Source: a virus. From it: a DNA stretch of 17,539 nt. Positions 1-16,443 of the stretch are shown here, one piece after another (positions within the stretch are counted from its first letter, which is position 1; each line of letters begins with the position of its first letter). The stretch lies in IMG/VR virus record IMGVR_UViG_3300045988_168756; one strand, 5' to 3'. A program made the translations under genes and the position numbers. Under the pieces are notes generated by a model. It was not told the origin of the DNA, made no database searches, and saw nothing but the letters and a program-made list of their open reading frames with translations.

Positions 1-73
1 CCCTGGGGGTTGCGGCCCCAAAACATGCACTTTGGAAAACCAAAATCCCTGTCCTCCCTTACGAAAATAAAGC

Positions 74-102
74 TTGCATTTTCCAGCACACTATGCTATA
101 AT
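74..102 (+). promoter_or_regulatory. Early promoter in ITR-L (sigma-A type)
   Basis: TTGCAT (74-79), 17-nt spacer, TATAAT (97-102), preceded by TGc (extended -10). It lies about 45 nt upstream of the first ITR gene and faces inward. Confidence 0.7.
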
Positions 103-146
103 GATTATAGAAACAAGATATAGGGATTCAGAAAGAGAGGTACATT

Positions 147-314
147 ATGGTAAGTAAATATGGAGAATTTAAAGGTTATGATTGGAACACTGGTTTGTAC
201 ATTTCTCGTTATTGGGCAAAGCACTATTATCCTGAACGAGTAGCAGTTAAGGTAGAAGGTGGATATAAAACAATGACTCATGACGAATATAGAATATGGA
301 GGAATCAGAAATGA
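147..314 (+). CDS. Hypothetical early protein, 55 aa, aromatic-rich (ITR copy L)
   Basis: Not in the ORF track because it is under 60 aa. ATG at 147 is preceded by AGAAAGAGAGG with 6-nt spacing. Translation is MVSKYGEFKGYDWNTGLYISRYWAKHYYPERVAVKVEGGYKTMTHDEYRIWRNQK. The stop TGA at 312-314 overlaps the next ATG (ATGA coupling). It is the first gene after the promoter. Confidence 0.6.
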   Translation: MVSKYGEFKGYDWNTGLYISRYWAKHYYPERVAVKVEGGYKTMTHDEYRIWRNQK

Positions 315-511
315 CAAAAGTTTCTACTTTAAAATTCGGAGATTTATATATGTGCAATTCAGCATGGAATGAAGATACCTACATCGAATTATTAGATGAC
401 TCAGAGAACACAGTAACTTGTAAAGCTAGACACGCTTATTATTTCTTTCCAGATGCAGAAGTAAGTTGTTTCAAAGAAAATCAAGTAATATTCAGAGGGA
501 AGGTGTTATAA
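311..511 (+). CDS. Hypothetical early protein, 66 aa (ITR copy L)
   Basis: This is track ORF 296-511. I prefer the start at ATG 311 (MTKVSTLKF...), because GGAGG at 298-302 lies 8 nt upstream and ATG 296 has no RBS. The stop TAA at 509-511 overlaps the next start (TAATG). Confidence 0.65.
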   Translation: MTKVSTLKFGDLYMCNSAWNEDTYIELLDDSENTVTCKARHAYYFFPDAEVSCFKENQVIFRGKVL

Positions 512-762
512 TGAATCACGAACAACTAGTATTAAAAGCGGTTCTCACCGCAAGAAAATACAACAAACAACTGAATAAGGAAGTTCTTATCTATAAGTAC
601 TCTCTCATATCTGACTCTCTTCTGAAAGCTTACATTGACGAACTCAATCTAATCCACGCAGAAGAGCAAGAATTCATTCCCGACGAGCCAGCAGACGAAT
701 ACGACTGCGAACCAGAGTACTACGAATACGAACACTATAACGACTATCTTTGGAACATGTAA
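511..762 (+). CDS. Hypothetical early protein, 83 aa, with a strongly acidic Tyr-rich C-terminus (ITR copy L)
   Basis: This is track ORF 466-762. I prefer the start at ATG 511 (MNHEQLVLK...), preceded by GAGGGAAGGTG. The C-terminal tail reads EEQEFIPDEPADEYDCEPEYYEYEHYNDYLWNM. Confidence 0.7.
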   Translation: MNHEQLVLKAVLTARKYNKQLNKEVLIYKYSLISDSLLKAYIDELNLIHAEEQEFIPDEPADEYDCEPEYYEYEHYNDYLWNM

Positions 763-775
763 AGGAGGATACAAA

Positions 776-1096
776 ATGAACTTAGATGCAATTCAATCCA
801 TCATGGAACAGTTAGTAGAGCAAACTTGCTCAGATAATCTCAGACTCTATCGCAATGATAGAGTCTGTTGTATAGAAACAAGTGAGGGCGAATCATTTTC
901 CGCTTATGTAAATGAGTTCGGATGTATAACTCTTAATTCGCATTTCACCGGTTCAAATGTTATTAATGGAATAACATCCACATCTAAATTATACATTTCA
1001 TTGTCAACCTTTGAAACAGCCCTAGAATATAATATGATGCATTATTTTCCAGACTATATAGAACGTCTTAAGAACGCCGCATTATGGGAGGATTAA
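776..1096 (+). CDS. Hypothetical early protein, 106 aa (ITR copy L)
   Basis: ORF with AAAGGAGGA 7 nt upstream of the ATG. I recognise no motif. Confidence 0.7.
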   Translation: MNLDAIQSIMEQLVEQTCSDNLRLYRNDRVCCIETSEGESFSAYVNEFGCITLNSHFTGSNVINGITSTSKLYISLSTFETALEYNMMHYFPDYIERLKNAALWED

Positions 1097-1098
1097 AT

Positions 1099-1185
1099 AT
1101 GACAAATATAAATTTTCAGATTCAAGAATTTTTTTGAGCGAAATATTTACACATTTCTTGATGTTATACCAGCTAGGTATTATGA
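1099..1185 (+). pseudogene. Decayed left-arm remnant of the right-arm gene 16136-16441
   Basis: ATG 1099 with the same RBS as the right copy. The first 8 codons (MTNINFQI) lie inside the perfect ITR. Beyond 1123 the sequence diverges and reaches TGA at 1135-1137 after 12 codons. Roughly two-thirds nucleotide identity to the right copy, with a 1-nt indel, remains visible by eye to about 1185 (for example the shared CCAGCTAG and TATGAAGTTTC blocks). Confidence 0.7.
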
Positions 1186-1288
1186 AGTTTCGGTATTTTA
1201 ATCACCTGAGTCAAGAACTACCTTTATCTATTTTCCTTGTAGGTGGGGTGGTCAAACCTTCAATCCAACCCAAAGGAGGTGAATCCAC

Positions 1289-1441
1289 ATGATAGTACTA
1301 AACTATGTTCTAATCGTACTCTCCCTAGTACTCTTCATTTACTCCGGAGACACGAACATACTAATCGCAGTAGGTCTGTTCTCAATCGCGCAATCGATAA
1401 CAAACCTCAAAGTAAACATCCATAAGAAATCTCGCTATTAG
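1289..1441 (+). CDS. Small hydrophobic (predicted membrane) protein, 50 aa
   Basis: Not in the track. AAAGGAGGTG lies 7 nt upstream of ATG 1289. Translation is MIVLNYVLIVLSLVLFIYSGDTNILIAVGLFSIAQSITNLKVNIHKKSRY, giving one or two hydrophobic segments and a basic tail. A hairpin terminator follows. Confidence 0.6.
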   Translation: MIVLNYVLIVLSLVLFIYSGDTNILIAVGLFSIAQSITNLKVNIHKKSRY

Positions 1442-1449
1442 TAACAAGG

Positions 1450-1474
1450 CGGTGGAGTCAAAACGGCTCCACCG
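1450..1474. terminator. Hairpin between convergent transcription units (likely bidirectional terminator)
   Basis: CGGTGGAG (1450-1457) pairs with CTCCACCG (1467-1474), extendable by T-G and C-G pairs around an AAAAC loop. It lies between the end of the plus-strand left early operon and the stop of the minus-strand endolysin gene. The flanking T-tracts are weak. Confidence 0.5.
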
Positions 1475-1485
1475 TTCTTATGTTA

Positions 1486-2337
1486 TTAAGGCTTAATCAA
1501 AATTCCAGCTTTAAGCAAATTCAGCATAAGTACATTCTGTTCAGCTGTTCCTTTATAATCAAGGATTCCATTCACAGCCGCAATCTTTTTCCTGTACTCA
1601 TAACTTCCATCGAAACCGATACTTTCTAAAGCTTTGCTGATACTCTCTCCGTTAAACACGTCATTCAGAAACAGTTCGTACAGTTCTTTTGGATGCAGAC
1701 TTAAAATGCTTTCGTCAAACGCGTTAAGGTCAACTTTCTGTTTGATTCCATCCACAAAACCTTTGCTCGTATACTGCCAACCTATCTGATTCGGTAAATT
1801 CGGGTTCAAACTTCCCACAGGAATATCTTCCTCAATAGGGTAAGAATTTATTTTATTATCGTGTGGGTATCTAGCCGCCCACACAATAGGCTGTAATTTT
1901 AGCACTTCATCATGGTTGAAATTATGTTCATTCCAAAATGATAATCCTGTGTACAGTCCAAATTTAAAACCGGCTTCTTTAATCATATTTGCTTCATAAC
2001 AAATAAGATTAGTAAGTTTTTCTGAACCTAATTTGCGCAAACTGTCGTCTTCTACATCCAGATAGATAACAGAAACATTGTCTTTAAAAACATCTAATAA
2101 AAGATTTAGTACACCTTTTATTTCCTCATACGCATCGGCCTGATTGGTGGCATACATATATTTGTAAACATCATATGGAATCCCATATAATTTGCATGAA
2201 GCCGCACGGTCATAAAATAGTGCATCCGGTTTATTATTTTTTGTAGTAGCTCTTAAAATCGCATACTCAATTTTTTTGTGCGCCTTGTCCCAATCAATAT
2301 CTGTTTGAAACGCACTTAAATCCACACCTTTAATCAT
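1486..2337 (-). CDS. Endolysin: N-terminal GH25 muramidase plus a short C-terminal putative wall-binding module
   Basis: The N-terminus KGVDLSAFQTDIDWDKAHKKIEYAILRAT matches the GH25 signature (GIDVSxxQGxIDWxxV...FAIIRA). The C-terminal ~50 aa (YRKKIAAVNGILDYKGTAEQNVLMLNLLKAG) resembles a short helical module seen at the ends of Firmicute phage lysins; this is from memory and tentative. It is the last gene of the lysis cassette and overlaps the holin stop by 8 nt. Confidence 0.8.
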   Translation of the reverse strand: MIKGVDLSAFQTDIDWDKAHKKIEYAILRATTKNNKPDALFYDRAASCKLYGIPYDVYKYMYATNQADAYEEIKGVLNLLLDVFKDNVSVIYLDVEDDSLRKLGSEKLTNLICYEANMIKEAGFKFGLYTGLSFWNEHNFNHDEVLKLQPIVWAARYPHDNKINSYPIEEDIPVGSLNPNLPNQIGWQYTSKGFVDGIKQKVDLNAFDESILSLHPKELYELFLNDVFNGESISKALESIGFDGSYEYRKKIAAVNGILDYKGTAEQNVLMLNLLKAGILIKP

Positions 2338-2788
2338 GCAAGTTTTCCTCCCCTTTTTTATTAATCTTTCCTCTTACGTCTTTAACATAGCGAGTTAAAA
2401 AGTCAGGTATCGGCACTCCCAAACCAGCAACGTTTTCCAGAATACTGAGCAACTCATTTAAGATAAACCATACAGTTACCAGTAAACCGAAGAACATTGT
2501 AATCTCATATTTCAGCCCCATAATAGACATCGCATACATGATAATGTAATCAAAGAACATAGCTACAATTATCACGCATAAATATCCTACCTTTTTAACA
2601 ATTCCCTTAACACTCGCTTTAGAGCTTAAACCTTCTTTTTCCGCGTTGTTTGCACAGCCACTAATAAAATCCACAACCATGCAGCACAGCAGTATAACCA
2701 TGACTGGAAACATAGCTTGCGTTTCTGCCGTTATCCATGTAAGTAAAAGTGTAAGTCCGCTGTGTATTGCTATCTCCACATTTTTCAT
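2330..2788 (-). CDS. Holin (Phage_holin_4_1 / TcdE-like family)
   Basis: 152 aa with several hydrophobic helices and the family-typical stretch DFISG....EGLSSKASVKGIVKKVGYL. It sits immediately upstream of the endolysin. Confidence 0.8.
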   Translation of the reverse strand: MKNVEIAIHSGLTLLLTWITAETQAMFPVMVILLCCMVVDFISGCANNAEKEGLSSKASVKGIVKKVGYLCVIIVAMFFDYIIMYAMSIMGLKYEITMFFGLLVTVWFILNELLSILENVAGLGVPIPDFLTRYVKDVRGKINKKGEENLHD

Positions 2789-2793
2789 GATTT

Positions 2794-3549
2794 CTATCCT
2801 TTCGGTTTGTAGTACCCGTTTCCAATAAAATAAAACAAGGTATCTCTATATTTTACAATATCTGTACTAATACGTCTAACTTGCCACGGTAAAAAATACA
2901 ATGGATTATGTGTCATTTTAAGATAAAAATTACCATTCCATTCCCACAAGTATAAATATTCATTTTCCGGTTCCGGCTCAGGTGGCGGATCAGGTGGGGG
3001 AGTAGGAGGTTCAGGCGGCGGTTCTGGTTCTCCTTGAGCAAGTACCTGATACCAGTACCATGCTTGACTTCCGCGCTTTGGCTGATTCTGATTGCTAGGA
3101 CGTTCATAATTTTTCAACCATACGTCGGCAAGGTATTTGACGCACTGTTCGTCTGTCATTCCAATGCTGGTGTCAGGCGTATATTTTATGAACTCAGCAA
3201 ACGATAATGGATATTTACTTGTAGGGGAATACTGTTCTCGATTTTCAAGTTCCCATTGTATACGTGCAAGTTGGTGTTCATAATTGCTGTAGTCTGTCCA
3301 GCCATTTTCTCTACACCAATTAAAGTACTTTGTTGCTGGTGTCCACTGAACCAGACCGTAACCTCCACTGGTATTTCCCGCATTTAACCCTTCCCAGATT
3401 CCCGGATTAAAAGTACTTTCTGTCTGCAAGTTACCGAACATTCCAGCAATCGCATATTCTGTCCATCCCATAGCTTTGAATAATGGCCATAGTTCTGTAG
3501 CGTTTTCTGTCATGTCCGGTAACTGTAAGTACGCGTTACTGGTTATCAT
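2794..3549 (-). CDS. Tail-associated peptidoglycan hydrolase (phage tail lysozyme type), with a Pro-rich linker and an unknown aromatic C-terminal domain
   Basis: The N-terminal domain carries GNLQTESTFNP....GGYGLVQWT, the pattern of the phage tail lysozyme family. The linker EPEPPPEPPTPPPDPPPEPEPE follows, then about 55 aa rich in Tyr, Trp and Phe. It occupies the position of phi29 gp13. Confidence 0.7.
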   Translation of the reverse strand: MITSNAYLQLPDMTENATELWPLFKAMGWTEYAIAGMFGNLQTESTFNPGIWEGLNAGNTSGGYGLVQWTPATKYFNWCRENGWTDYSNYEHQLARIQWELENREQYSPTSKYPLSFAEFIKYTPDTSIGMTDEQCVKYLADVWLKNYERPSNQNQPKRGSQAWYWYQVLAQGEPEPPPEPPTPPPDPPPEPEPENEYLYLWEWNGNFYLKMTHNPLYFLPWQVRRISTDIVKYRDTLFYFIGNGYYKPKG

Positions 3550-4340
3550 TTTTTAGCAAGTGTTATTTCTATACTAAAATTAAGTCTTCCAGCGCTTTGC
3601 GCGTCTTGACCGTAAACTAAACTTAATCTTGTTACTTCATTTGATAATTCTTTTTCAGCGGTAGTTGGAAAATTTGAATTGAAGTAGTGAAATATTACTT
3701 CTCCTGACACGTCATTTTCTCTAACTACAAGAGATGAGCCAGTGCCTGAAGAACTTCCATTTATTAAATTAACCTTTGAAATTTTAGTTCCGTCAGGCGC
3801 GTCTACGCTAAAGTTATTTGTTTTGTTTCCACTTGCAAGGTTTGGAGCCCATGAGCCAATGGAATAATTTGTTTTTATTATTGTAACTTTAGGTGTTGAT
3901 TCAAGTGCTGTAACCCTCGCGTCCAGTCCATTAATCTGACTCACATTTCCCTGAGCCTGCTGTAACGCCGCATTGGCATCTGTGCTAGCCTGATTCGCCG
4001 CATTCACAGCCGCTGTAGAATTGGTATTAGCCTGACCAGATTTTGTAGCCGCATCATTTGCTTGAGTCAACGCAGTCTGAACTTTAGTTTCTATGGTATC
4101 TGCTAACCCGCTAATACTATCCACCTGATTCTGAGTCTCAGTCAACGTTTCCTCAGCGTCCCCAATTCTCGCGTTGGCTTCATCCATTTTGTTGGAACCT
4201 TCACCAGCAGAATTTTTGTTGTCATTCATCCCCTTGTCGATAATTCCCATTGCATCATTAAAGTCTCCAAGGAAAGTGGGTTTATCGGTGTCGATGTACT
4301 GCGGAAGGCCATAGTTGGGTGTTTTGTTTGTACTACTCAT
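3546..4340 (-). CDS. Tail fibre / receptor-binding protein candidate
   Basis: The N-terminus PNYGLPQYIDTDKPTFLGDFNDAMGIIDKGMN matches a motif common at tail-fibre N-termini. It is followed by an A/N/T/Q-rich helical stalk, the motif INGLDARVTALE, and a ~110-aa beta-looking C-terminal domain. Its stop and the next gene's start form an ATGA overlap. Confidence 0.6.
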   Translation of the reverse strand: MSSTNKTPNYGLPQYIDTDKPTFLGDFNDAMGIIDKGMNDNKNSAGEGSNKMDEANARIGDAEETLTETQNQVDSISGLADTIETKVQTALTQANDAATKSGQANTNSTAAVNAANQASTDANAALQQAQGNVSQINGLDARVTALESTPKVTIIKTNYSIGSWAPNLASGNKTNNFSVDAPDGTKISKVNLINGSSSGTGSSLVVRENDVSGEVIFHYFNSNFPTTAEKELSNEVTRLSLVYGQDAQSAGRLNFSIEITLAKK

Positions 4341-4379
4341 TTTGAATTCCTCCTTATAGATGTTTCACGTGAAACATTA

Positions 4380-4826
4380 TTAACCATTTTCCAGAGCGGC
4401 TATTCTCTGGTCTAAACCAGAAATGGAAATAGCAACATTATTGTTTGCTTGCTGGGCTTGTGTAACCAGAGCGACCGATTTACTCACGCTGTCTGTCGCA
4501 TTGTTTGCATTTGTCAAAGAAGTGTTAGCAAGTTTAGCGGCATTTGTCGCAACTGTCACAGCCGTAGTGGCGTTGCCGTCCTGTTCATGAAATTTTGCTT
4601 CTGCCAATGTTAACTGTTCCCTCATGTTAACATTAATTGAAATTATCTGTGCTACTCTAGCAATGATTTCATTTGCCCGCTGTAAAATCCGGTTTGCAAG
4701 TGTTCCATTGCTGTTCATATCCGTATCAATTTCTGCGAAATTTGCTGTCCAATCTTCATTGGGATACGGCGCATCCATTTTGTTGTAAATTCCGAGCTTG
4801 TAGTATGGAGTCTGTCTTGTAAACAT
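4380..4826 (-). CDS. Tail fibre-like protein, a short paralogue of 3546-4340 without the C-terminal domain
   Basis: It shares the N-terminal pattern (PYYKLGIYNKMD...NFAEIDTDMNSN), the A/N/T stalk and a terminal ISGLDQRIAALENG motif with the neighbouring gene. Its start overlaps the upstream stop (TAATG). Confidence 0.55.
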   Translation of the reverse strand: MFTRQTPYYKLGIYNKMDAPYPNEDWTANFAEIDTDMNSNGTLANRILQRANEIIARVAQIISINVNMREQLTLAEAKFHEQDGNATTAVTVATNAAKLANTSLTNANNATDSVSKSVALVTQAQQANNNVAISISGLDQRIAALENG

Positions 4827-6142
4827 TAAGCTATCCCTCCCTTAAGAGCAACATTTTCGATGTACATAATTACGGGGGCTTTTATGATGTGTAAATCGTT
4901 TTCTGTTGTAACGTTTAACACATTTACGTTAAAGTCAACTTCCAATAAATTATGTTCCACGCTTTCCAGATAATTTCTGGAAACTGTTTGATAAGTTCCG
5001 CTGTTGCTTAATTCTGGTGCCACAATAGCGTTGATTAAATCTATGCGCTTCGCAGTAACAGGAAGGTCTGCTTTGATAAGATATGGAACAGTGCCTTCTG
5101 TAACTTCTGGCGCGTCATACGTTCCAGCAATTTTAAACTTTCTTTTGAAACCATTTGCTGAACGCTCTATCGTTTGTATATTATTTGTATCAAAAATCTG
5201 TATAGAACTTCTGTCCCAGAAATAAGCGGTTACGTTATACTTTTTGTAGTCAGCATCGTTAAACTGTAAAATGTTATCTCGTTCACTTGCAGTAAGGCAC
5301 ATTTCATTATCCATGCTGGCAACATCTTCGACCGCTGTCTGAATTCTTCCCCATTCGCCTGTCATGGGATTGTAAATAAGATGCTTGTATTTTTTGTACA
5401 TGATTCGATAAGCCTGAACATCAAAATCAATCGCGGTCATGTACAATTGCTGGAAGTTAGTACCAACGTTTCCAAAAGCTTCAAACCATTCATCAAACTG
5501 CGCCGCTGTGATTGCGTGTACTCTCAAAGCATTCCACACATCTGTAACGGTATTTCCCACATGGTCACGCAATCCCGTTGTCGGATTATCAATTCGAAAT
5601 CCGTCTTCATTTATTTCGTCCACTTCCAGCCGAAGTTTGTCTAATTCTTCTTGCACCCATGCGCGTGTGCGTTCTATGCTGGAATCAACATAAGCAGTTA
5701 AATTCTGCTTCATAATATCCATATCCGCATAGATTTTTACAACATCGCTTGCGTGTTTGTCGCGAATATCCTTGAAATTAGTATCTACGTAAGTACGTAA
5801 ATCGGTTATCATTCCCTCGATTCGCACAACGTCTTTAAGATGTTCATTCCAGTAAAACGTATCTTGCTGGTCTACATACGTACGTAATTCTGCAAGTGTT
5901 CTGTCGTGATAATCTCTTAACTGGTCAATCACAGCTGTGAGTTCTACACGTAAAGCATCAATCGCCTTGTCTGTGTATTCCTCATAATTCGTCTGTAAAT
6001 CTTCCAGATACTGCACAATCACGTTTACGTTGTACAGGATTTTTCCGAGATTTTCCTCAAAAGAAATTGACCAGTCCCACGCCGATGGAAGAGAAAGCCA
6101 CGATGGAGGATTGCACACTTTTTTAGGTTTTTCGATATCCAT
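4826..6142 (-). CDS. Structural protein, putative appendage or fibre-anchoring protein (phi29 gp12 position)
   Basis: 438 aa with AAGGGAGG 7 nt upstream of the ATG. The N-terminal half is helical and carries repeated LRTYVD / LTAYVD motifs. The call rests on synteny only, since it lies between the lower collar candidate and the fibres. Confidence 0.4.
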   Translation of the reverse strand: MDIEKPKKVCNPPSWLSLPSAWDWSISFEENLGKILYNVNVIVQYLEDLQTNYEEYTDKAIDALRVELTAVIDQLRDYHDRTLAELRTYVDQQDTFYWNEHLKDVVRIEGMITDLRTYVDTNFKDIRDKHASDVVKIYADMDIMKQNLTAYVDSSIERTRAWVQEELDKLRLEVDEINEDGFRIDNPTTGLRDHVGNTVTDVWNALRVHAITAAQFDEWFEAFGNVGTNFQQLYMTAIDFDVQAYRIMYKKYKHLIYNPMTGEWGRIQTAVEDVASMDNEMCLTASERDNILQFNDADYKKYNVTAYFWDRSSIQIFDTNNIQTIERSANGFKRKFKIAGTYDAPEVTEGTVPYLIKADLPVTAKRIDLINAIVAPELSNSGTYQTVSRNYLESVEHNLLEVDFNVNVLNVTTENDLHIIKAPVIMYIENVALKGGIA

Positions 6143-6157
6143 ATTATTACCTCCCTT

Positions 6158-6889
6158 CTAAAATGTAAAAATTTTGAGAAACAGTCCACGGCTTACCTCT
6201 CTCACCATTTCCCCAATCACATCAGGTAACGTGTCTCGGTTTCGCTTGAGTACTTCTCCTTGTGGAATAGTGAAGCCTTTATGAGTGACCGTTTCTGTCA
6301 AGTCCCGTTTACGTTCTCCCTTATCAGAGGAATTGGAATCACTACTTCCGCTACCATTGTCTGTTGTTATGTTAGTAGCGTAGTCCTCATTCCCTAAAGC
6401 ACTTTCCGGTGTGTCCTCATACACATTCTTGTTGGTGTTTGTTGCGCTGGTGTGCATGTTTCCAGAGTTTTCGGTATTTTCTCCCTCATTAACCGAGCGG
6501 CTAGTTTCGTCTGAAAATGAATTTAGCAAGTCAAAATCTTTCTGCATGATTTCGTAAAGTTTATTGTATCTCCATATTACGCGTCTTATGTTACCATTAA
6601 ATCGTAATAAAAACATCGTTACACTTTCGTACTCAATTTCTCGCATCAAATTGTCAGTACAAAAAAGCTGGAAGAAATCATCTTTCATTTGTTCAGAGAA
6701 GAACCGAATATTTTTGTCAATCATGCTCTTTTCGGCTGTTGCTATTCGTTCCCAAACAGGCACATCATATTCTGGTTTAAAGAAAGGGTATCTCCCTTCA
6801 CCAGCGTTTTGTTTAGCAAGAGCTTCGGGGTTTTTGTCCTGTGAATAATGATAAATTATGTCACGTAATGTTGTTGTATAATATGACAT
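6158..6889 (-). CDS. Lower collar protein candidate (phi29 gp11 position)
   Basis: 243 aa, immediately downstream of the connector gene and translationally coupled to it (TAATG overlap at 6889). The assignment is by synteny, not by a recognised motif. Confidence 0.5.
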   Translation of the reverse strand: MSYYTTTLRDIIYHYSQDKNPEALAKQNAGEGRYPFFKPEYDVPVWERIATAEKSMIDKNIRFFSEQMKDDFFQLFCTDNLMREIEYESVTMFLLRFNGNIRRVIWRYNKLYEIMQKDFDLLNSFSDETSRSVNEGENTENSGNMHTSATNTNKNVYEDTPESALGNEDYATNITTDNGSGSSDSNSSDKGERKRDLTETVTHKGFTIPQGEVLKRNRDTLPDVIGEMVREVSRGLFLKIFTF

Positions 6890-7848
6890 TATTCGTCACC
6901 CTCTTTCTCTTCTGTCTCGCCTGTCCCGTACCCCTCTCTATCAGAGGTATCGCTAGGCTGTAAAGTTCCATCAACTTTAGCAAGTGCATTTGCATCAAAT
7001 TCTACACTTATGTTAGTTCCAAACATTCGGTTGACTTGTTCTGCACCAATTTCTCGGCTTCTCAAAGCATTATTTCTGAATCCCATAATGTGCTCATTGT
7101 TTGCGTTACCCTCGTCTACAGTAAGATGTTCCGCCTTATACACGGAAATGTTGTTGTAACCTAGCAATGAAAGATATTCCCCAAGAATCGCCATTTTTGT
7201 TTTGTCAAGCGGCTCCGTAATAATTGGTGTACTTAAATCCAGAACTTCCGGTTTGTCAGTTTCAGAAATGAATTCGTCTGAATCATCGTAAAAAATATAC
7301 GGTAAACCGAGTTGCGTGTTATTAATCATTTGACGCATCGAATTCTCGTTGTCCTTGTTCGCACGAATAATTTTAGGTCTCATCTGCAAGGTAATATTTA
7401 CATCCTTTGCGAGTTCCACACGCGCCAACTTTTGCGCATAATATTCGATGATTGGTACAAACGGAGAATAGGTCGCATCATTAAATACCAAAACACTGTT
7501 ATCTTCATACCGTACAGTATGGTATCCGTTTGCCGTATTAACATGACGGATTCTGGGAATGTTGTAAATGTTAAATTTACCAGTGTTTGCGGAAGGAAGG
7601 GCTACCATGCCTATAACCGGGTTCTCAAAAAACAGACAATTTCCTTTCATAATTAGCGTCTGTTCTATCACTCGTTCTGAAACGGTATCAGGCAAATTAT
7701 TCCACTTAAAACGGCTAATCGCTAAAACGTATAGATATCTAAGATAATTCCAGTACGTCCAATCTCGATTTACACCGCTCATAATTTTCTGGTCATACCC
7801 TACGCCACACAGACCGAGCGGATCACGGCTTATACTGCGTCTTCCCAT
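6889..7848 (-). CDS. Connector / upper collar (portal) protein, phi29 gp10-like
   Basis: FKWNNLPDTVSERVIEQTL resembles phi29 gp10 FEWENLPPTINPSFLEKSI, and RPKIIRANKDNENSMRQMINN resembles [21 protein letters not shown] (from memory). Size (319 aa) and the acidic C-terminus also fit. Confidence 0.8.
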   Translation of the reverse strand: MGRRSISRDPLGLCGVGYDQKIMSGVNRDWTYWNYLRYLYVLAISRFKWNNLPDTVSERVIEQTLIMKGNCLFFENPVIGMVALPSANTGKFNIYNIPRIRHVNTANGYHTVRYEDNSVLVFNDATYSPFVPIIEYYAQKLARVELAKDVNITLQMRPKIIRANKDNENSMRQMINNTQLGLPYIFYDDSDEFISETDKPEVLDLSTPIITEPLDKTKMAILGEYLSLLGYNNISVYKAEHLTVDEGNANNEHIMGFRNNALRSREIGAEQVNRMFGTNISVEFDANALAKVDGTLQPSDTSDREGYGTGETEEKEGDE

Positions 7849-7863
7849 TTTTATCCCTCCTTT

Positions 7864-9549
7864 CTATTCATTGTTTCCATAAGTTCCTACGTTTTCATAA
7901 TCATGCCAAAACGTTACGCCATTTAAAAACATACTTCTTATGGTATCTAAATGCTCGTTTGGTATATTACCATAAATATTAACGGTATTACACCTAACAT
8001 AATTGAATCTAGGTCGATTGTTTAAGTACGGTATTCCGATTCGGTTAGACTTATATCCATATGCATCAAAATAGCTTTGCAGTTTTGAACGGAATTCCGG
8101 TTTAACAGTGTACGCTCTTATAATAACATCCAAAGAACCGTTAACTGCCATCAATACCGCTTCACTCCCACCGGAAGAATTGCCAGCAAGACCTATCGCA
8201 CTTTGCATCATGTCGATTTTTTGTCTGTCTCGCTCGGAAGCTTGGTGTTCCCTAACTGCGCTCTGGACCGCATTCGCAATTGCGTTAACAATTCCGCTTG
8301 CGTCACCCTGGTTTGAAACCGCCTGACCAATTCCACTTGCTAAACCGAAAATTGTACCGATAATATTATTGGTTCGATTTTGGCTGTGAACTAAATTATT
8401 TGTACTAACAGCTTGAGATTTAGACAAAATGAATTGGTTATTCTGCACAGGAAATGAGGGAAAACCTGAAAAGCTTGTTCCAGCGTTTAGTAAATCGCTG
8501 TTGTTTATGTTTCCGTCATAGTCATTTGCCGACGCTAATAGTGTACCATCTGGTATGGGACTTCCGGTGATGGTAATAGATAACGTTGCACCGTTTATTA
8601 ATTCCGGCTTTAAAACAACCTTGTTTCCAGACGGCATCACTATCTCAAAAAAGCTGTACGGGTAACAATATAATTTTTTCTGTGTGTACGCTGGTAACAT
8701 GGACTGCCAGTTGATATCAATTACACGTTTTCTAGGACTTGTATTTCCGTAGCACACACCGATTCTAAATCCCATGGCACTAGAAAATATCCCTTGTTTT
8801 GGAACGAAATCCGCTGGAAAAGGGAACACCGAAATGATAGATTGTGCAACCCATGCATAGTCAGATAAACTTGCAAAAATATCACGCAATGTTGACGTGT
8901 TTTCGTCTACAAAATAAATTCCAGCGGCAGATGGCAATCCGTTTATTTCGCATCCCGGCGCGCCTTTTATGATTATTTCGTCTTCTGTTCCACCAGAATG
9001 TACAAGGTCTGCGGTGGAAATTATTAAATAGGTGTTCACCTCTGACAACGAATCGAGAGTGTAAACGCTTTCTTGATTGATAACATAATCTCCATAATCC
9101 ACTGGTTCCACAACGGTATTATAATTGTAAGCATAACCTCGCGGTGCATGTTCACGGGCAATATCGCAATCACGTATTACTACATTATTAAAATACGTCT
9201 GCCACGCGTCTAAATGAAAGCGTATTAATGAGGTCTTAGGATTAACATACTCAATTGCGTCTACGTAACAGTACATCCAAATACCATTATACTGCGTGTT
9301 TCTAAACCGCATGTAGTTAGATGCAAGTAACGTTTCCGCATTGTAGTTAACCTGTAATGCCCTATGTTCGCGTATGTATTTAAACGTAAAATTTCCTGCA
9401 ATCACTTTACCGTCAAAATAGCTATCTCTAGCCGCTTCTGACGCAAAATAAAGCTGACGATTTTCCGCTACAGGAATATATCCTAAAAGCTGGAATACGT
9501 TTGATTGCATTGCTCTTGTTTCTACATCTGTCATAAATTCCATGTTCAT
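7864..9549 (-). CDS. Tail knob protein, phi29 gp9-like
   Basis: SNYMRFRNTQYNGIWMYCYVDAIEYVNPKTSLIRFHLDAWQTY resembles phi29 gp9 [43 protein letters not shown] (from memory). Its length is 561 aa versus about 600 aa in phi29. Confidence 0.8.
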   Translation of the reverse strand: MNMEFMTDVETRAMQSNVFQLLGYIPVAENRQLYFASEAARDSYFDGKVIAGNFTFKYIREHRALQVNYNAETLLASNYMRFRNTQYNGIWMYCYVDAIEYVNPKTSLIRFHLDAWQTYFNNVVIRDCDIAREHAPRGYAYNYNTVVEPVDYGDYVINQESVYTLDSLSEVNTYLIISTADLVHSGGTEDEIIIKGAPGCEINGLPSAAGIYFVDENTSTLRDIFASLSDYAWVAQSIISVFPFPADFVPKQGIFSSAMGFRIGVCYGNTSPRKRVIDINWQSMLPAYTQKKLYCYPYSFFEIVMPSGNKVVLKPELINGATLSITITGSPIPDGTLLASANDYDGNINNSDLLNAGTSFSGFPSFPVQNNQFILSKSQAVSTNNLVHSQNRTNNIIGTIFGLASGIGQAVSNQGDASGIVNAIANAVQSAVREHQASERDRQKIDMMQSAIGLAGNSSGGSEAVLMAVNGSLDVIIRAYTVKPEFRSKLQSYFDAYGYKSNRIGIPYLNNRPRFNYVRCNTVNIYGNIPNEHLDTIRSMFLNGVTFWHDYENVGTYGNNE

Positions 9550-9564
9550 GCACCGCCTTTATTT

Positions 9565-10848
9565 TCAGCCACCTGCCGCAGTCACTTTTTTCTCCCCATG
9601 TACGGAGTTATCGAGATACGGCGTAGCGTAAATAGTAAGAGCTCCTTTTTCTTCTGCGCCTACACTCAGCACGCCCTGATCATTCATACGTGTACTGGAA
9701 GATGTATTTCCGAGAACAGACCACATTACAGCCTGAGATGGGTTATTTGTTCCGGTTACTGTTGCCGTGTAAACAGAACTTCCACCAGGGGTGTAGGTGT
9801 CCGCACCAGCAATCGTTACACTGGTGACTGTCGGAAGAGCCGCAGTTGTAATCGCAATTGCATTGTGGAACGGAGAAAGGAAGTAAGTCTGCCATACATG
9901 CAACCAGTAATTCCAAGAGAGTTTTTCCCGGTCATAGAAATCGTTTGCTTCGAAAAGATTATCATAAATGTTCAAGAATTCTTCATCCGCAATGATAGCG
10001 ATAATTTCCGGGTGATTCGGAATCTCCGGAATCAGTGTTATTCTTCCAAGAAAACGTGCTTCATCCATATGGAACGCGTATGCTAAAGCCTGTACGCTGG
10101 TAACAGCATCTGCCTTTGGAGTAATAAAAAGACGCTGGTCTTCCAGAGACGTTGTATTCATAACTCCTGCCGCATTCATGGAACGAGTAGGAAAACGTAA
10201 TGTGTTAGACGCAATTCTAAGAGCGGTAAGAAAGCTCTTTGCACTTGCTTCATCGGTCGGTTCGTCGGCATGAACCAATTTAAACTTTCCGCTGTCAACA
10301 TAATCAACAAACAGAGCAAGTGTGTACGCGAATTCAGCAACATCATTACTGGTGTACATACCATTTATAACTCTGTCTACCAGAGACGCAACACCTTCTT
10401 CGGAATAAAAAGCGGCCTGTAAATCTCGTCTCCAAATGGTCTGTTTAAAATAGTCCTCCCGGTTACGGTTGTGGTAGGCAACTTTCAGGTCAGGCTTTTC
10501 AGTCTTTAACATTGCCCATGGATCGGTGTCCTCGCCATAAGCATGCGCTGTTGCAATGTCAACCCAGATATCCTCAATCGTATATCCATACGGTATCATA
10601 CCACGCTTTGCAAAACCGAAGGGATTCGTAAAGTACATTTTGTTGACTTTAGTGAAGGAAACCTTGTTCACCAGAAAGTCGAAGAACCGGTTCATTACAG
10701 GTTCATAATTCATCAACGTACCGCCGAACTCACGAATGTTCGTACTTACGGGTTCCGGCAAAAGTCCTTCATATTCTGTGCCAGCTAAACTTGCTCTAAA
10801 GTCCGCAAGCAATGCGGGAACATTTGATACTGCATTTTTTACTGCCAT
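9565..10848 (-). CDS. Major capsid protein with a C-terminal bacterial Ig-like (BIG2-type) domain, phi29 gp8-like
   Basis: 427 aa with AGGAGG upstream. It lies between the scaffold candidate and the tail knob. The C-terminal ~85 aa (VTSVTIAGADTYTPGGSSVYTATVTGTNNPSQAVMWSV...GVLSV) has the BIG2 pattern, the same architecture as phi29 gp8. Confidence 0.75.
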   Translation of the reverse strand: MAVKNAVSNVPALLADFRASLAGTEYEGLLPEPVSTNIREFGGTLMNYEPVMNRFFDFLVNKVSFTKVNKMYFTNPFGFAKRGMIPYGYTIEDIWVDIATAHAYGEDTDPWAMLKTEKPDLKVAYHNRNREDYFKQTIWRRDLQAAFYSEEGVASLVDRVINGMYTSNDVAEFAYTLALFVDYVDSGKFKLVHADEPTDEASAKSFLTALRIASNTLRFPTRSMNAAGVMNTTSLEDQRLFITPKADAVTSVQALAYAFHMDEARFLGRITLIPEIPNHPEIIAIIADEEFLNIYDNLFEANDFYDREKLSWNYWLHVWQTYFLSPFHNAIAITTAALPTVTSVTIAGADTYTPGGSSVYTATVTGTNNPSQAVMWSVLGNTSSSTRMNDQGVLSVGAEEKGALTIYATPYLDNSVHGEKKVTAAGG

Positions 10849-10862
10849 TTCTTAATCCTCCT

Positions 10863-11138
10863 TTAAAGGTTTAGATAGTCCTCAATCTTAATGGTTGGGA
10901 CTTCTTTCTTTTCTTCATTCTGCACAATATCGCTTATGACTTCTTCCTCAGCAACGCTGGGTTTTGTGAAGTCATTAATGTACTGTGCACGGATTCTGTC
11001 GCGGTCACGTTCCACTTCACTGTAATACGCCGCCGCTTCATTGATTGCGGAACCGATAAAAGTTTCGTCGTAGACTTCGCCTTCTTCCAGTTCTGTACCA
11101 GCTATCCGTCTTAGCATCCTCAAAAGCTTCTCATTCAT
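10863..11138 (-). CDS. Scaffolding protein candidate (phi29 gp7 position)
   Basis: I prefer ATG 11138 (MNEKLLRMLRR...), preceded by GGGAAGGAGAAAG, over the TTG-initiated 118-aa track ORF. The 91-aa product is helical and acidic and sits directly upstream of the capsid gene. Confidence 0.55.
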   Translation of the reverse strand: MNEKLLRMLRRIAGTELEEGEVYDETFIGSAINEAAAYYSEVERDRDRIRAQYINDFTKPSVAEEEVISDIVQNEEKKEVPTIKIEDYLNL

Positions 11139-11164
11139 GCGTCTTTCTCCTTCCCTTATTTCGT

Positions 11165-11270
11165 CAATCCCACATTTAAAGAAATAGGAGCGTCTAAAAA
11201 TCGAAATGCGGGATTGCAAGCCGGTATGGGACTGCCAGCGTATTACCGCTTTCCCTCAGCAGTCTACCAA
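11165..11270 (-). ncRNA. Candidate structured RNA (two adjacent large hairpins) in the ATPase-scaffold gap
   Basis: In the minus-strand transcript, hairpin I is UUGGUA-GACUGC (11270-11259) pairing with GCAGUC-cca-UACCGG (11235-11221), with an inner AGCG/CGCU stem around a GUAAUA loop. Hairpin II is CAAUCCCGCAUUU (11216-11204) pairing with AAAUGUGGGAUUG (11177-11165), 13 bp including one G-U. The G-U pairs exist only in the minus-sense RNA. No convincing ORF lies in the 163-nt gap. Confidence 0.4.
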
Positions 11271-11301
11271 AATTTAAACACTCCTACTCAATATAAGTGT
11301 A

Positions 11302-12357
11302 TCATAAATATGACAATATGTCAAGCATTTCTTTTTTGATATCCACATTTTCAAACCACGCTTTTCCGGCATTGTAATAACGCTTGAATGACATAGCCGT
11401 TTCGGAAAGCTGGGAGAGTAAATAGGTATCCTCAAAATGGGAGTTCGCATCAAACGCAAATTTAAGTTTGAATTTTTCGTTTGCTTTGCTGGAAAAATAA
11501 AGACAGTCCTTGTTTATCCAAACACCGATGTTTTCTGCGGTTCCTAAAACACCGTCGTTTATGGTTATCGTACAGTAGTAATATTTATCTTTGGTTTCCA
11601 ATTTCCGAACAAACGAATAGGTGTCAAGCATGTATTTATTTGACGATGCAAATTGTACGTAATTTGATTCACTAAAAGCGCGGTTGAAACCACTGGAAAG
11701 TAGGGCTTCTTTTGCGGCCTGATTCTCCGTTACTTCTAATACCCAACCATCGCCACGCAGAAATTTAGTGTCAGATTCCAAACGTTTCTGAATTCCCAAA
11801 GCCTTGTAATAAGGATTCAGAATGGAGACATTGTTTCCGCATAAAATGTTACGCACATATCTAGTCTGTTTTCCAAATCCTCTGGCAATGGAATTCTGGA
11901 TACTTATAAATTTAGAAATCTCATTTTCACAATAATGCTCAGTCTCAGACTGGAACTCGTCCATGAACCGATTTTCCACTTCTATAAAACGTGAGGAAAC
12001 CTTCTTTATTGTGTCGGCGTTATTAAGGAAGGTGGCAAAACCACATTCCGTGTCATTCAGATACAAAACTTTATAAGCACCTCTCATTTCAGACTTTGCG
12101 TGCATTTCAAAATCAGGAGGGTAAAGCTGCGCAATGTCACTAAAAAATGAATTCTCACAGTCAGACAACTCGTAGTTGTATCTGTATTGTAGCATAAATT
12201 TACGCTTATTATCGTTCAAAAAATCCTCAAAAATTGTGCGTTTTGCTGAGAACGTTTTTCCGGCTGTACGATTACCTGTTACAATAAATAATTCTGGTGT
12301 TTTACCATTCAGGTCTTTCTTGCTTAGCAATCTGGATATGTCATAGTACTTACCCAT
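11302..12357 (-). CDS. DNA encapsidation (packaging) ATPase, phi29 gp16-like
   Basis: 351 aa with Walker A GNRTAGKT near the N-terminus, a Walker B-like RFMDEF, and AAGGAGG upstream. Size matches gp16-type ATPases of small protein-primed podophages. Confidence 0.8.
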   Translation of the reverse strand: MGKYYDISRLLSKKDLNGKTPELFIVTGNRTAGKTFSAKRTIFEDFLNDNKRKFMLQYRYNYELSDCENSFFSDIAQLYPPDFEMHAKSEMRGAYKVLYLNDTECGFATFLNNADTIKKVSSRFIEVENRFMDEFQSETEHYCENEISKFISIQNSIARGFGKQTRYVRNILCGNNVSILNPYYKALGIQKRLESDTKFLRGDGWVLEVTENQAAKEALLSSGFNRAFSESNYVQFASSNKYMLDTYSFVRKLETKDKYYYCTITINDGVLGTAENIGVWINKDCLYFSSKANEKFKLKFAFDANSHFEDTYLLSQLSETAMSFKRYYNAGKAWFENVDIKKEMLDILSYL

Positions 12358-12379
12358 GTGTTCCTCCTTATATTAAAAT

Positions 12380-12399
12380 AGGGACGTTTTCACGCCCCT
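12380..12399 (-). terminator. Rho-independent terminator candidate after the early/replication genes
   Basis: In the minus-strand RNA, AGGGGCG-ugaaaa-CGUCCCU forms 7 bp including one G-U, which would be an A-C mismatch in plus-sense RNA. AUUUUAAUAU follows. It lies between the p5-like gene stop (12429) and the ATPase RBS. Confidence 0.5.
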
Positions 12400-12428
12400 A
12401 ATAATTGCAGATATATAAAAATGTGTTT

Positions 12429-12776
12429 TTAGATAGCTTTAAGCTGTAAAAATTCTCTGTCTGATTTAGATGTGCCCGACGCAATCTGTACCCTGATAGG
12501 GTGTTCTGCGCTAGGTTCTCCAAAAATGTCTACAAGATTCTGAACACAATCGTTTACCGTAGGGGACATAGTTGTGTACATTTCTCCTTCTGCCGTAAAC
12601 AGTACGGTGCATACTCCCAGTTCCGGTTCCTTTGTGTTCTTTCTCTCGGTTTCGTACTGCACGATATCAGTTACGGAAAACTCATCGCCCACAAAGTCTT
12701 GCATCTGTTTACCGTTTACAGTACGCGCATTGTAAAGCATCATTTTGTCGGTAGTGGTGTTAATTAAATCTCTCAT
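12429..12776 (-). CDS. Single-stranded DNA-binding protein, phi29 p5-like
   Basis: 115 aa. LYNARTVNGKQMQD resembles p5 IFNAQTGGGQSFKN. VLFTAEGEMYTTMSPTVNDCVQNLVDIF resembles TIFAADGSLYSAISKTVAEAASDLIDLV. IRVQIASGTSKSDREFLQL resembles FKVKVVQGTSSKGNVFFSLQL. All phi29 sequences are recalled from memory. Confidence 0.65.
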   Translation of the reverse strand: MRDLINTTTDKMMLYNARTVNGKQMQDFVGDEFSVTDIVQYETERKNTKEPELGVCTVLFTAEGEMYTTMSPTVNDCVQNLVDIFGEPSAEHPIRVQIASGTSKSDREFLQLKAI

Positions 12777-12823
12777 TTTATTTTCTCTCCTTATTTGTCA
12801 TATTCATTAACATTGATAACTGA

Positions 12824-13126
12824 TTATTCCGTTACGCCGAAAGCTTCCTTAATTTCTGCGTCTCCATCTGGTACAACAAAAGAATTCTTAATAAAATCTT
12901 CTTCGCTCATGGCTCTTGTCTCTTCTACTGTTGCTGTTCCAAGACAGATAAGCTTGCCCTCATGTTCAGGCCACTTTGCTGTTGCTTCTTTAAGGATTTT
13001 CTTTGTGTCCCCCAGCTTCTTTCCGGTAATCTTTTCAGGAAGGGTTACAACCTGACCTGACTGCGTATCAAAATACGCGATTGTAGCTTCTGTGATTTTG
13101 AATGTTCTGGTGATATGACCTCTCAT
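12824..13126 (-). CDS. Histone-like double-stranded DNA-binding protein candidate, phi29 p6-like
   Basis: 100 aa versus about 104 aa for p6. ITRTFKITEATIAYFDTQSGQVVTLPEKITGK resembles p6 ITKTTVNVAKMVMVDGEVQVEQLPSETFVGN. It also has a similar acidic C-terminus and lies adjacent to the p5-like gene. The similarity is weak and recalled from memory. Confidence 0.45.
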   Translation of the reverse strand: MRGHITRTFKITEATIAYFDTQSGQVVTLPEKITGKKLGDTKKILKEATAKWPEHEGKLICLGTATVEETRAMSEEDFIKNSFVVPDGDAEIKEAFGVTE

Positions 13127-13188
13127 ATTCTCACCTCTCCTTTCATGTACCTATTGTTTCGTTTTGGTCTATTAACTTGTTACAATTC

Positions 13189-13218
13189 ATTATACCATGT
13201 TTTACTGTATTTTGTCAA
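13189..13218 (-). promoter_or_regulatory. Internal consensus promoter for the p6-like / p5-like genes
   Basis: On the minus strand: TTGACA (13218-13213, inside the last codons of the polymerase gene), 18-nt spacer, TATAAT (13194-13189) preceded by TGg. It lies about 60 nt upstream of ATG 13126. Confidence 0.65.
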
Positions 13219-15079: not shown

Positions 15080-15091
15080 GATTATACCGTC

Positions 15092-15736
15092 CTATTCCTC
15101 GTCATAAAATTCGTTTTCCATGAATGACCTTTTTTCGTTTTCTGGTACTTTCAAATATGTTAGCATTTCGTTAAGTGATGCTTGTAGTCTAATTGCATCA
15201 TATGCTTCTTTGGCGGATAGCCAATTACCTTTACGCTTTCCTTCTTCTAGCATCTGTGCCGCCACATCTGCACCGTAAGTATTTACGATTCTGTCTATCC
15301 AACTTTTCGCCATATCACGTCTGTCTGTAACACGCCTGTCCCAACGTCCAAAAACATAGGACGAAATGAGGTCATAAAAATTTTCTAGTATAACACTTGA
15401 AATGTCTGGTGCTGTAGCAAACACGTCCATATTTCCTGTTTCCTGATACAGCTTACGGTCTTGTCTGTATCGTTTGCGTCCTTCTTTTGGCGTAAATATT
15501 TCACCTGTGTTAAAATCAACATATGCAGTTGCGTAAGAGCGACGTTTTTCTGGTGTCAGTTTTTTAAGACGGTTTATGGAACCACGAGTAATTTTTTTCG
15601 GAATCTTTGGAATAAGCTTTTCTGTGTCATAGATAAAACCACGACGGTTTTCTGCACGTACCCAAGACTGCAAATTTTTACGTATTCTACGGTATTCTTT
15701 TTCTACTGCTGTTAATCGTTTTCTTCTTTTTGGCAT
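15092..15736 (-). CDS. Terminal protein candidate (phi29 gp3 position)
   Basis: 214 aa, immediately upstream of the polymerase in the same operon, as in phi29. It has a very basic N-terminus (MPKRRKRLTAVEKEYRRIRKNL...) and an acidic C-terminus. The RBS AAGGAGAG lies 6 nt upstream of ATG 15736. I recognised no sequence similarity, so the call rests on position and composition. Confidence 0.55.
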   Translation of the reverse strand: MPKRRKRLTAVEKEYRRIRKNLQSWVRAENRRGFIYDTEKLIPKIPKKITRGSINRLKKLTPEKRRSYATAYVDFNTGEIFTPKEGRKRYRQDRKLYQETGNMDVFATAPDISSVILENFYDLISSYVFGRWDRRVTDRRDMAKSWIDRIVNTYGADVAAQMLEEGKRKGNWLSAKEAYDAIRLQASLNEMLTYLKVPENEKRSFMENEFYDEE

Positions 15737-15924
15737 GGCTTACTCTCCTTATAAAATTCTTCGGCATCTACAAAACAATCGATTTTAGAATACATCCGGT
15801 CTATTAAAGATAGTGCTACATCTTGCTGGTCACTGTTTACACGTGTTAACACATTTCTTAATGCCAACATAATTATTGCGTATTCCTGTCGCGTAAATCC
15901 TAGTATCACAATCTTCTTTTTCAT
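15712..15924 (-). CDS. Hypothetical protein, 70 aa, first gene of the replication operon
   Basis: AAAGGAGGTG upstream of ATG 15924, directly downstream of a consensus promoter. Its 3' end overlaps the terminal protein candidate start by 25 nt. Confidence 0.6.
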   Translation of the reverse strand: MKKKIVILGFTRQEYAIIMLALRNVLTRVNSDQQDVALSLIDRMYSKIDCFVDAEEFYKESKPCQKEEND

Positions 15925-15952
15925 TTGTTCACCTCCTTTGTCGCTATACTCT

Positions 15953-15981: not shown

Positions 15982-15986
15982 TAAAA

Positions 15987-16019: not shown

Positions 16020-16028
16020 ACAATGGGC

Positions 16029-16441: not shown

Positions 16442-16443
16442 AT

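Follow-up and report, generated by a model that had tools for sequence, protein, structure and literature searches.

We analysed a 17,539-nucleotide stretch of viral DNA (IMG/VR record IMGVR_UViG_3300045988_168756), referred to here as the window, whose two ends are formed by a long, gene-bearing inverted terminal repeat (ITR). The window represents a complete linear genome, that of a phi29-like podophage of the human gut, which most probably replicates by protein priming from both ends. Alignment of the window against its own reverse complement gave the first mismatch at position 1123, and positions 1-1122 are the exact inverse of 16418-17539 (100% identity). This bore out the length and perfect match given in an earlier note made from the sequence alone, together with its statement that about one eighth of the genome is duplicated, since the two arms account for 12.8% of the 17,539 bases. 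A perfect inverted repeat of 1.1 kb cannot have arisen by chance. Homology between the arms goes on past position 1122: BLAST extended it to 1194, paired with 16347, and alignment with relatives showed that the left-arm copy runs to ~1233.

Each arm carries four open reading frames (ORF1-4; Table 1), which are intact in both copies. The ratio of nonsynonymous to synonymous substitution rates (dN/dS) of the four ORFs was ~0.05-0.27 in comparisons with relatives, and because of these values we regard them as real genes under purifying selection. The earlier note had credited each arm with a complete promoter and four intact genes; the genes stood up to this analysis, and the promoter is a match to the consensus made by hand. 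A sigma-70 consensus scan did not call the site at 74-102, because its -35 hexamer matches at only 3 of 6 bases. All relatives keep the site, which varies little or not at all among 10 aligned ends, and a conserved 5' untranslated region (5'UTR) and ribosome-binding site (RBS), AGAAAGAGAGG, follow 3' of it, to ~142. The ORF listing placed all other genes on the minus strand, so that the right arm is co-directional with the early and late genes into which it leads and the left arm points inward against them. In all relatives ORF1-4 lie at the right end, upstream of a candidate terminal protein gene and the DNA polymerase gene. The right arm is the probable source copy, because it is co-directional with the early replication operon. 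The products of ORF1-4, of gene 5, and of the 70-, 50- and 67-aa genes described below gave no family match in Pfam (E<=1) or PHROGs. In the 83-aa ORF3 product the C-terminal third is exceptionally acidic, with many aromatic residues (DEPADEYDCEPEYYEYEHYNDY); this tail resembles small phage DNA-mimic or anti-host proteins, with no family match.

Inward of position 1122, the left copy extends for a further 111 bp as a frameshifted fragment of a different allele of gene 5. A run of seven T residues in this fragment shifts the frame, and a stop codon follows at 1135-1137. The fragment is of the allele type found in other relatives (for example 128768), unlike the allele in the window's own right arm. 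From 1233 inward all relatives are collinear with the window. Position 1122 falls within a gene and marks a boundary of recombination or haplotype, and the duplication junction lies instead at ~1233. An exact probe placed over this junction had no match among IMG viral or JGI metagenome contigs. Exact-protein look-ups, in which neither the 50-aa ORF nor the 106-aa form of gene 5 was on record, located the junction, apart from the window, only in assemblies of this strain.

Three other assemblies of the same strain (ERR912035, ERZ27256435 and JGI 3300029731) were compared with the window. Their unique regions were 100% identical wherever fetched, and their arms differ from each other at 2 sites (1060 and 1063) or at 27 (687-1063). 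The MEGAHIT contig k127_5875 (run ERR912035, 16,421 bp) corresponds to window positions 560-16980, spans both inner junctions and shows no difference from the window over the 15,295-bp unique region. The collapsed repeat contig of this assembly is 686 bp long and the arms of its main contig differ at the 27 sites, giving an arm identity of 100% over 1-686, 93.8% over 687-1122 and ~74% over 1123-1194. ORF3 and ORF4 are intact in both of these copies and the changes are mostly synonymous. Compared with the window, ERR912035 has 29 differences in the arms and 0 in 15.3 kb of unique sequence. The main contigs of ERZ27256435 and JGI 3300029731 share the inner part of the left arm, with T,G at 1060/1063 in the left arm and A,A in the right. 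Their stand-alone repeat contigs reach 1059 and 1067 bp and carry the left-arm alleles at 687-972, while the right ends of the main contigs show that the other haplotype is also present. We infer that two kinds of right arm co-exist in these two assemblies, one of them with left-arm alleles at 687-972. Compared with the right arms of other relatives, the right-arm haplotype shows 99.4% identity. The unique region (1123-16417) was also 100% identical across different projects where it was fetched (k127_5875 and parts of both k119_97964 and Ga0245178_101786), all strain differences lying in the arms; this reflects either one very widespread clone or linked samples (ERR912035 and SAMEA3449230 may be one sample).

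The perfect identity of the arms had been taken in the earlier note as a sign of active homogenisation. That inference is not supported in this form, because an assembler emits one collapsed copy twice; identity cannot be read from the assembly, and the arms of the sister assemblies differ at 2-27 sites. Homogenisation itself does seem to occur, as indicated by the gradient of identity from tip to centre and by the variant right arms in otherwise identical genomes. Crossovers between arms explain the gradient no less well than a panhandle formed by the displaced strand would; the gradient neither calls for a panhandle nor speaks against one, and a panhandle could yield similar patterns.

Repeat length varies widely among close relatives. 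In most of them the two ends share only ~142-180 bp, consisting of the terminus, the TTGCAT-17-TGcTATAAT site, the 5'UTR and the RBS, and the basic repeat of the clade is ~142 bp with an origin, one early promoter and an RBS. Beyond the basic repeat, most relatives have a gene for a 64-67-aa protein at the left end and ORF1 at the right. Between the basic repeat and position 1233 the left end is highly variable, with at least nine left-arm architectures that have distinct junctions in genomes at least 88% identical; at least eight of these exist besides that of the window, and repeats range from ~142 to ~1627 bp (Table 1). Junctions that were read base by base showed 0-5 nt of microhomology, a hallmark of illegitimate recombination or of template switching. 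We read these repeats as recurrent expansions that arose independently of one another. At the junction in ERZ27299245 lies a 31-nt insert copied from repeat coordinates 512-542, which suggests serial template switches. In the relative 111198 the repeat boundary falls exactly at a 13-nt RBS-containing sequence, CAAAGGAGGTGAA, which in the window occurs identically at 1271-1283 (+) and 15928-15940 (-), ahead of the 50-aa left-end ORF and the 70-aa right-end gene. The 64-67-aa left gene is dispensable, because it is lost in all extended types. The closest record to the window, MT835904 (human faeces, 90.6% nucleotide identity), carries at its right end the 5' part of the 67-aa left-end gene fused to the 3' part of ORF4, and so appears to show copying in the opposite, left-to-right direction. 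The 124-bp perfect 'ITR' of MT835904 has its boundary inside the 67-aa gene and is probably merely a k-mer overlap into a longer collapsed repeat. In a sister clade (polymerase 53% identical) repeats of 150 to ~590 bp enclose one small ORF.

The contig ends are physical genome ends, as the recurrence of the same terminal base across assemblies indicates. Four stand-alone contigs from four assemblies (686, 1059, 1067 and 1122 bp) all start exactly at CCCTGGGGGTTGCGGCCCC, with the same terminal bases CCCTGGGGG. The 1122-, 1067- and 1059-bp contigs carry the repeat sequence of the window, and the 686-bp contig carries it with 2 single-nucleotide polymorphisms (SNPs). These contigs behave as dead-end repeat nodes, in which the tip is the genome terminus and the inner end is the fork where the arms part. 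For a comparison of ends, 14 IMG/VR relatives were rebuilt from two overlapping stretches each. Many of their contig ends lie within 0-8 nt of the first base of the window, at CCCTGGGGGT(C/T)(G/A)CGGCCCC, and the sister clade ends in CCCACGTCGAC. In one sister-clade contig an Illumina adapter is fused directly to the terminal CCC at both ends. Untrimmed adapters (Illumina TruSeq or Nextera) were also seen at or near the phage terminus in the IMG/VR contigs 111198, 142605 and 115612; such ends support the physical termini but contaminate public records. The linear-genome features of the phi29-like group, an ITR and a reiterated terminal base (here 5'-CCC), are both present, and the terminus is kept at contig ends across many assemblies. 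Reiteration of the terminal base is needed for sliding-back initiation in the phi29 family (PMC6266182), and the CCC of the terminal motif is compatible with it; positions 1-19 are a putative origin by analogy with phi29-type replication. The first 60 nt, folded as DNA, gave no significant terminal hairpin (z = -0.7).

Table 1. Positions of features in the window, followed by the positions at which the repeat ends in the window's group and in relatives
Feature	Position	Strand	Remarks
Left ITR arm, perfect in the window	1-1122	+	Exact reverse complement of 16418-17539; stand-alone dead-end contigs elsewhere
Right ITR arm	16418-17539	-	Exact reverse complement of 1-1122; ORF1-4 at right end in all relatives
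Putative terminal origin motif CCCTGGGGGTTGCGGCCCC	1-19; mirror 17521-17539	+	Contigs from several independent assemblies start here or within 1-8 nt
Predicted early promoter	74-102; mirror 17438-17466	+; mirror -	TTGCAT (74-79), 17-nt spacer, extended -10 TGcTATAAT (94-102); read by hand
ORF1, 55 aa	147-314; mirror 17226-17393	+; mirror -	dN/dS 0.15/1.16 versus divergent relative
ORF2, 66 aa (71 aa with start at 296)	311-511; mirror 17029-17229	+; mirror -	dN/dS ~0.07
ORF3, 83 aa	511-762; mirror 16778-17029	+; mirror -	dN/dS 0.05-0.27; very acidic C-terminal tail
ORF4, 106 aa	776-1096; mirror 16444-16764	+; mirror -	dN/dS ~0.05
Repeat stretch variable in sister assemblies	687-1063		25 sites at 687-972 plus 1060 and 1063
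Decayed 5' fragment of gene 5	1099-1233	+	Inner diverged part of left-arm copy; from alignment with relatives; same in independent contig k127_5875
Original duplication junction	1229-1236	+	Right-arm-derived sequence meets conserved left-end TTCCTTGTAGGTGGG; 1-2 nt microhomology
Conserved left-end ORF, 50 aa, hydrophobic	1289-1441	+	Last gene of left-arm transcription unit; called as gene in relatives
Terminator-like hairpin	1448-1476	+	Between left-arm unit and converging late operon
Protein-primed family B DNA polymerase	13202-15079	-	PF03175, E 1.8e-54
Candidate terminal protein, 214 aa, basic N-terminus	15092-15736	-	By position only, directly upstream of polymerase
Strong promoter-like site	15981-15953	-	11/12 matches, with TG; for operon of 70-aa gene, terminal-protein candidate and polymerase
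Terminator-like near-perfect 33-nt palindrome with T-run	16019-15987	-	Directly upstream of promoter-like site
Gene 5, 101 aa (106 aa with start at 16456)	16136-16441	-	First right-arm gene outside perfect repeat; first 24 nt inside
Repeat end, 3300000277_000022	~542
Repeat end, ERR11771645	~572
Repeat end, 133725	~649		Both arms on one contig, 647 bp at 99.8%
Repeat end, ERR13261606	~654		Junction inside 50-aa ORF
Repeat end, ERZ27273649 and HMP scaffold	~657		Junction at RBS of 50-aa ORF
Repeat end, window's group	~1233
Repeat end, ERZ27299245 (k141_48654, left end)	~1252		31-nt templated filler
Repeat end, 111198	~1627		One-sided contig, other end stops exactly at boundary

Three features accompany one another in these phages: complete genes stand in two copies, the repeat boundary varies among close relatives, and identity falls from the tip to the inner boundary with alleles exchanged between the arms. 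We consider it likely that they result from an inverted duplication of the right end, reaching ~1233, followed by crossovers between the arms that homogenised the tips. In the basic arrangement of the clade the shared ~142-bp cassette would drive different first genes at the two ends. An inverted copy of ~1.23 kb of the right end, comprising ORF1-4 and the first ~45 codons of gene 5, would then have replaced the usual 64-67-aa gene at the left end. The duplication would have occurred by illegitimate recombination with 1-2 nt of microhomology at ~1233, either by a template switch during strand-displacement replication or by a process resembling end joining. In a template switch, the strand-displacing polymerase would have moved from the nascent right-end strand to a displaced strand near 1233; breakage and joining would be equally possible. 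If the left arm of one genome copy crossed over once with the right arm of a second copy, all sequence distal to the crossover would become identical, and repeated crossovers would keep the tips identical while the inner part drifted or took up alleles from other phages. The expected outcome is three zones, namely a near-perfect one of 686-1122 bp, depending on the strain or the assembly, an imperfect one to ~1194, and an end at ~1233. Each arm would supply an origin and an early promoter, and of the small early genes ORF1-4 the phage carries two copies, both presumably expressed.

Extended to the clade, this account would describe a lineage with hyper-dynamic ends, in which early genes are repeatedly copied from one end to the other by illegitimate template switching or recombination, giving repeats of 142 bp-1.6 kb, and the copies are then homogenised by crossovers from the tip inward, a generalisation towards which we lean with some reserve. 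If it is true, the ITR would be a built-in engine for duplicating, swapping and testing early genes, whether for host takeover or against defence, in a protein-primed phage, and the process would be visible between genomes that are identical over their remaining 15.3 kb.

Several points weigh against this interpretation. The evidence comes from short-read metagenome assemblies and not from reads, and such assemblies collapse repeats and can thread together co-occurring strains. Haplotype linkage in ERZ27256435 and JGI 3300029731 was deduced from unitig ends and not seen directly, and the ~1627-bp repeat of 111198 from a one-sided contig. The terminal protein was assigned by position alone. The sequence is compatible with template switching as well as with breakage and joining, and with crossover as well as with panhandle repair. 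The repeat, genes, ends, junction, polymorphism and arm differences were observed; protein priming, the mechanisms of recombination, expression from both arms and a possible gain from the duplication are our interpretation.

Alternatively, homologous recombination may have brought in the entire long left arm from another phage that already had an extended repeat, so that the window would record only a horizontal exchange of end modules. The gene-5 remnant in the left arm belongs to the allele group of other relatives and not to that of the window's own right arm, and the arms are mosaics of haplotypes that circulate in the clade, as import would predict. However, replacement of the inner part of the right arm by an allele like that of 099388 after the duplication explains the same data, import merely shifts the duplication event to an ancestor, and the ~1233 junction was found in no IMG viral or metagenome contig, its only other occurrences being in assemblies of this strain. 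We consider import unlikely.

It is less plausible still that the repeat is truly perfect over 1122 bp and is kept so by an intramolecular panhandle of the displaced strand combined with mismatch repair. A stand-alone 1122-bp contig identical to the window repeat does exist in another assembly (2 samples), and restoration of homology through a panhandle has been proposed for adenovirus and PRD1, although direct evidence for it is lacking (PMC11886824). Against perfection stand the three assemblies of the same strain, all with T,G in the left arm and A,A in the right at 1060/1063, and one with 25 more differences. Both arms of the window itself combine left-arm alleles at 687-972 with right-arm alleles at 1060/1063, and the switch in this haplotype mosaic sits in the only gap between SNPs longer than 55 nt (972 to 1060). 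Exactly 59 identical bases follow 1063 before the 1122 boundary, and an assembler with k<=59 would pop the two-SNP bubble and end the collapsed edge exactly at 1122. These observations suggest that the mosaic is either a collapsed assembly bubble or the product of one more crossover. The phage of the window may have 1122 truly identical bases, which needs the additional crossover, or 1059 plus two SNPs; whichever holds, the arms of this type agree over 1122 bp at an identity of at least 99.8%.

The repeat is real, and a pure assembly artefact is very unlikely, because a fold-back of this genome could not have made the diverged, frameshifted sequence at 1123-1233. That one arm is spurious (a fold-back, a chimera from multiple displacement amplification or between strains, or a reused repeat edge) and that the true genome has a short ITR with a different left end can hardly be credited: phi29-type polymerases do produce inverted chimeras during such amplification, and an assembler that walks one collapsed edge twice makes the arms of the window identical by construction, but an independent MEGAHIT contig spans both inner junctions with distinguishable arms, the main contigs of two further assemblies carry the same inner part of the left arm, the alternative 64-67-aa left gene is on no contig of this strain, and several extended types were seen in more than one sample. 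Gut contigs flagged by an ITR are known to include artefacts (PMC9610469).

The remainder of the genome agrees with the earlier assignment to the phi29-like protein-primed phages, since a family B polymerase, capsid protein, connector, tail knob and encapsidation ATPase were all matched. The podophages concerned are of the Salasmaviridae/Guelinviridae type, the former Picovirinae. The polymerase matches phi29 DNA polymerase (1XHX) end to end, over residues 7-574 (E 2.3e-88). Pfam searches found the phi29-type capsid protein, connector and tail-knob gp9 (PF25622, 5.7e-88; PF05352, 4e-41; PF20934, 2.8e-29), together with a tail lysozyme and a GH25 endolysin. The lower collar protein corresponds to phrog_3225/5472 in PHROGs, which also added a holin and SSB-like and DBP-like proteins. 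A small gp16-like encapsidation ATPase at 11302-12357 matched the entire 341-position profile of phrog_2150 (E 1.3e-53) and had no Pfam match at E 0.01. The sole homologue of the 214-aa candidate terminal protein is the syntenic protein of Clostridium symbiosum phage CS229P2 (E 1.5e-21). It gave no match to known terminal proteins in Pfam, in PHROGs or by BLASTP against annotated terminal proteins, and its AlphaFold model, of moderate confidence (pLDDT 66), had no fold match in the PDB by Foldseek. The closest isolates to the window are the Clostridium symbiosum phages CS229P1-3 (polymerase 48.5% identical). The only match in a bacterial genome collection was CANRII010000145.1, a 3.9-kb contig in a rabbit-gut 'Ruminiclostridium' metagenome-assembled genome (polymerase 50% identical), which is a weak indication of the host. 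Lachnospiraceae or gut anaerobes resembling Clostridium symbiosum are candidate hosts.

An Rfam search of the window for a packaging RNA (pRNA) gave no match at E<=1. The encapsidation ATPase gene is separated from the late gene next to it by a 163-nt non-coding gap (11139-11301, minus strand), which folds into a branched structure with a minimum free energy of -45 kcal/mol (z = -2.1), and is a possible packaging-RNA candidate. The tail lysozyme (PF18013; 2794-3549, minus strand) has a proline/glutamate-rich linker, EPEPPPEPPTPPPDPPPEPEPE, followed by a C-terminal domain with no Pfam match. The palindrome and promoter-like site at 16019-15953 separate the ITR-proximal early genes from the replication operon.

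Phages of the phi29 type serve as the textbook model of protein-primed replication, and a major polymerase of biotechnology comes from them; their ITRs are usually portrayed as tiny non-coding origins. Here the repeat is on a kilobase scale, holds genes in two copies and often changes in length in nature. These phages offer a natural system for studying how protein-primed genome ends stay alike, by panhandle or by recombination, a question shared with adenovirus and PRD1, and they can inform the design of synthetic linear replicons that use phi29-type origins. There is also a practical consequence, in that virome pipelines take perfect ITRs as a mark of completeness, while both arm identity and ITR length depend on the k of the assembler and on bubble popping.

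ITR lengths of cultured relatives were taken from 19 records (18 different phages) of the 212 with a matching polymerase (PMC4974454, PMC3362512). The measured or annotated values were 6 bp in phi29, ~16 in Mendel, 28 in LE1-1, 46 in Rhizobium N3_8, 58 in CH17P1, 76 in susfortuna, ~117 in CS229P1, ~210 in Av-1, 236 in Cp-1, ~350-380 in Cp-7 and 577 in asccphi28, so that the window repeat is about twice the longest of them, in keeping with the contrast drawn in the earlier note. Bacillus phage Goe4 was dropped as a possible case of ITRs of ~2 kb, as its paper reports 7-bp core ITRs. Lactococcus phage asccphi28 and Streptococcus phages Cp-1 and Cp-7 are likewise protein-primed podophages with promoters and an origin in the ITR. 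As in the window, an imperfect continuation follows the repeat: Cp-1 is perfect over 236 bp, with 97.7% identity up to 352, and asccphi28, annotated at 577 bp, has 98.7% identity up to 609. The window differs from these three in having a repeat about twice as long, four complete genes within it and close relatives with many repeat lengths; no coding sequence lies inside the ITR in the records that annotate it (Cp-1 and asccphi28), and the first and last annotated coding sequences of Cp-7 are outside the repeat. With phi29 and the Bacillus phi29-like phages (ITR 6-16 bp) the window shares the polymerase family, capsid, connector, tail knob and encapsidation ATPase, whereas its ITR is ~100-200 times longer, Rfam detects no pRNA, and neither sequence nor fold identifies the terminal protein. 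The terminal reiteration available for sliding back is AAA in the phi29 group and CCC in the window (PMC6266182). The sister clade and CS229P1-3 have the same genome size, gene order and CCC termini as the window; their repeats are shorter, that of the isolate CS229P1 being only ~117 bp.

Beyond these phages, the earlier note had likened the repeat to those of linear plasmids, adenoviruses and poxviruses. The likeness to adenovirus does not extend to length or coding content, since adenovirus ITRs are non-coding and fall in the range of ~100-370 bp, as do those of PRD1. Adenovirus and PRD1 nevertheless resemble the window in being linear and protein-primed with two ends that are kept alike. 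For both, a panhandle formed by the displaced strand has been put forward, without direct evidence (PMC11886824), and an end that is damaged or unequal can be repaired from its counterpart, according to the statement in PMC11886824 that cites Savilahti & Bamford 1993 and Wang et al. 1991. The evidence here points instead to crossovers between arms and to illegitimate duplication.

The likeness to linear plasmids and poxviruses holds as an analogy of process and not as family membership. The ITRs of poxviruses and of Streptomyces and fungal linear plasmids are kilobase-scale, gene-bearing and maintained by recombination, with boundaries that vary between strains and genes inside that are diploid. 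There, too, an inverted copy of one end takes the place of the opposite end, which is lost by deletion. These replicons differ from the window in replication chemistry (hairpin telomeres in poxviruses), in having genomes 10-100 times larger, in their hosts and in the absence of homology. The process is known from poxviruses and linear replicons, and what is new is its occurrence, extent and frequency in a phi29-like phage.

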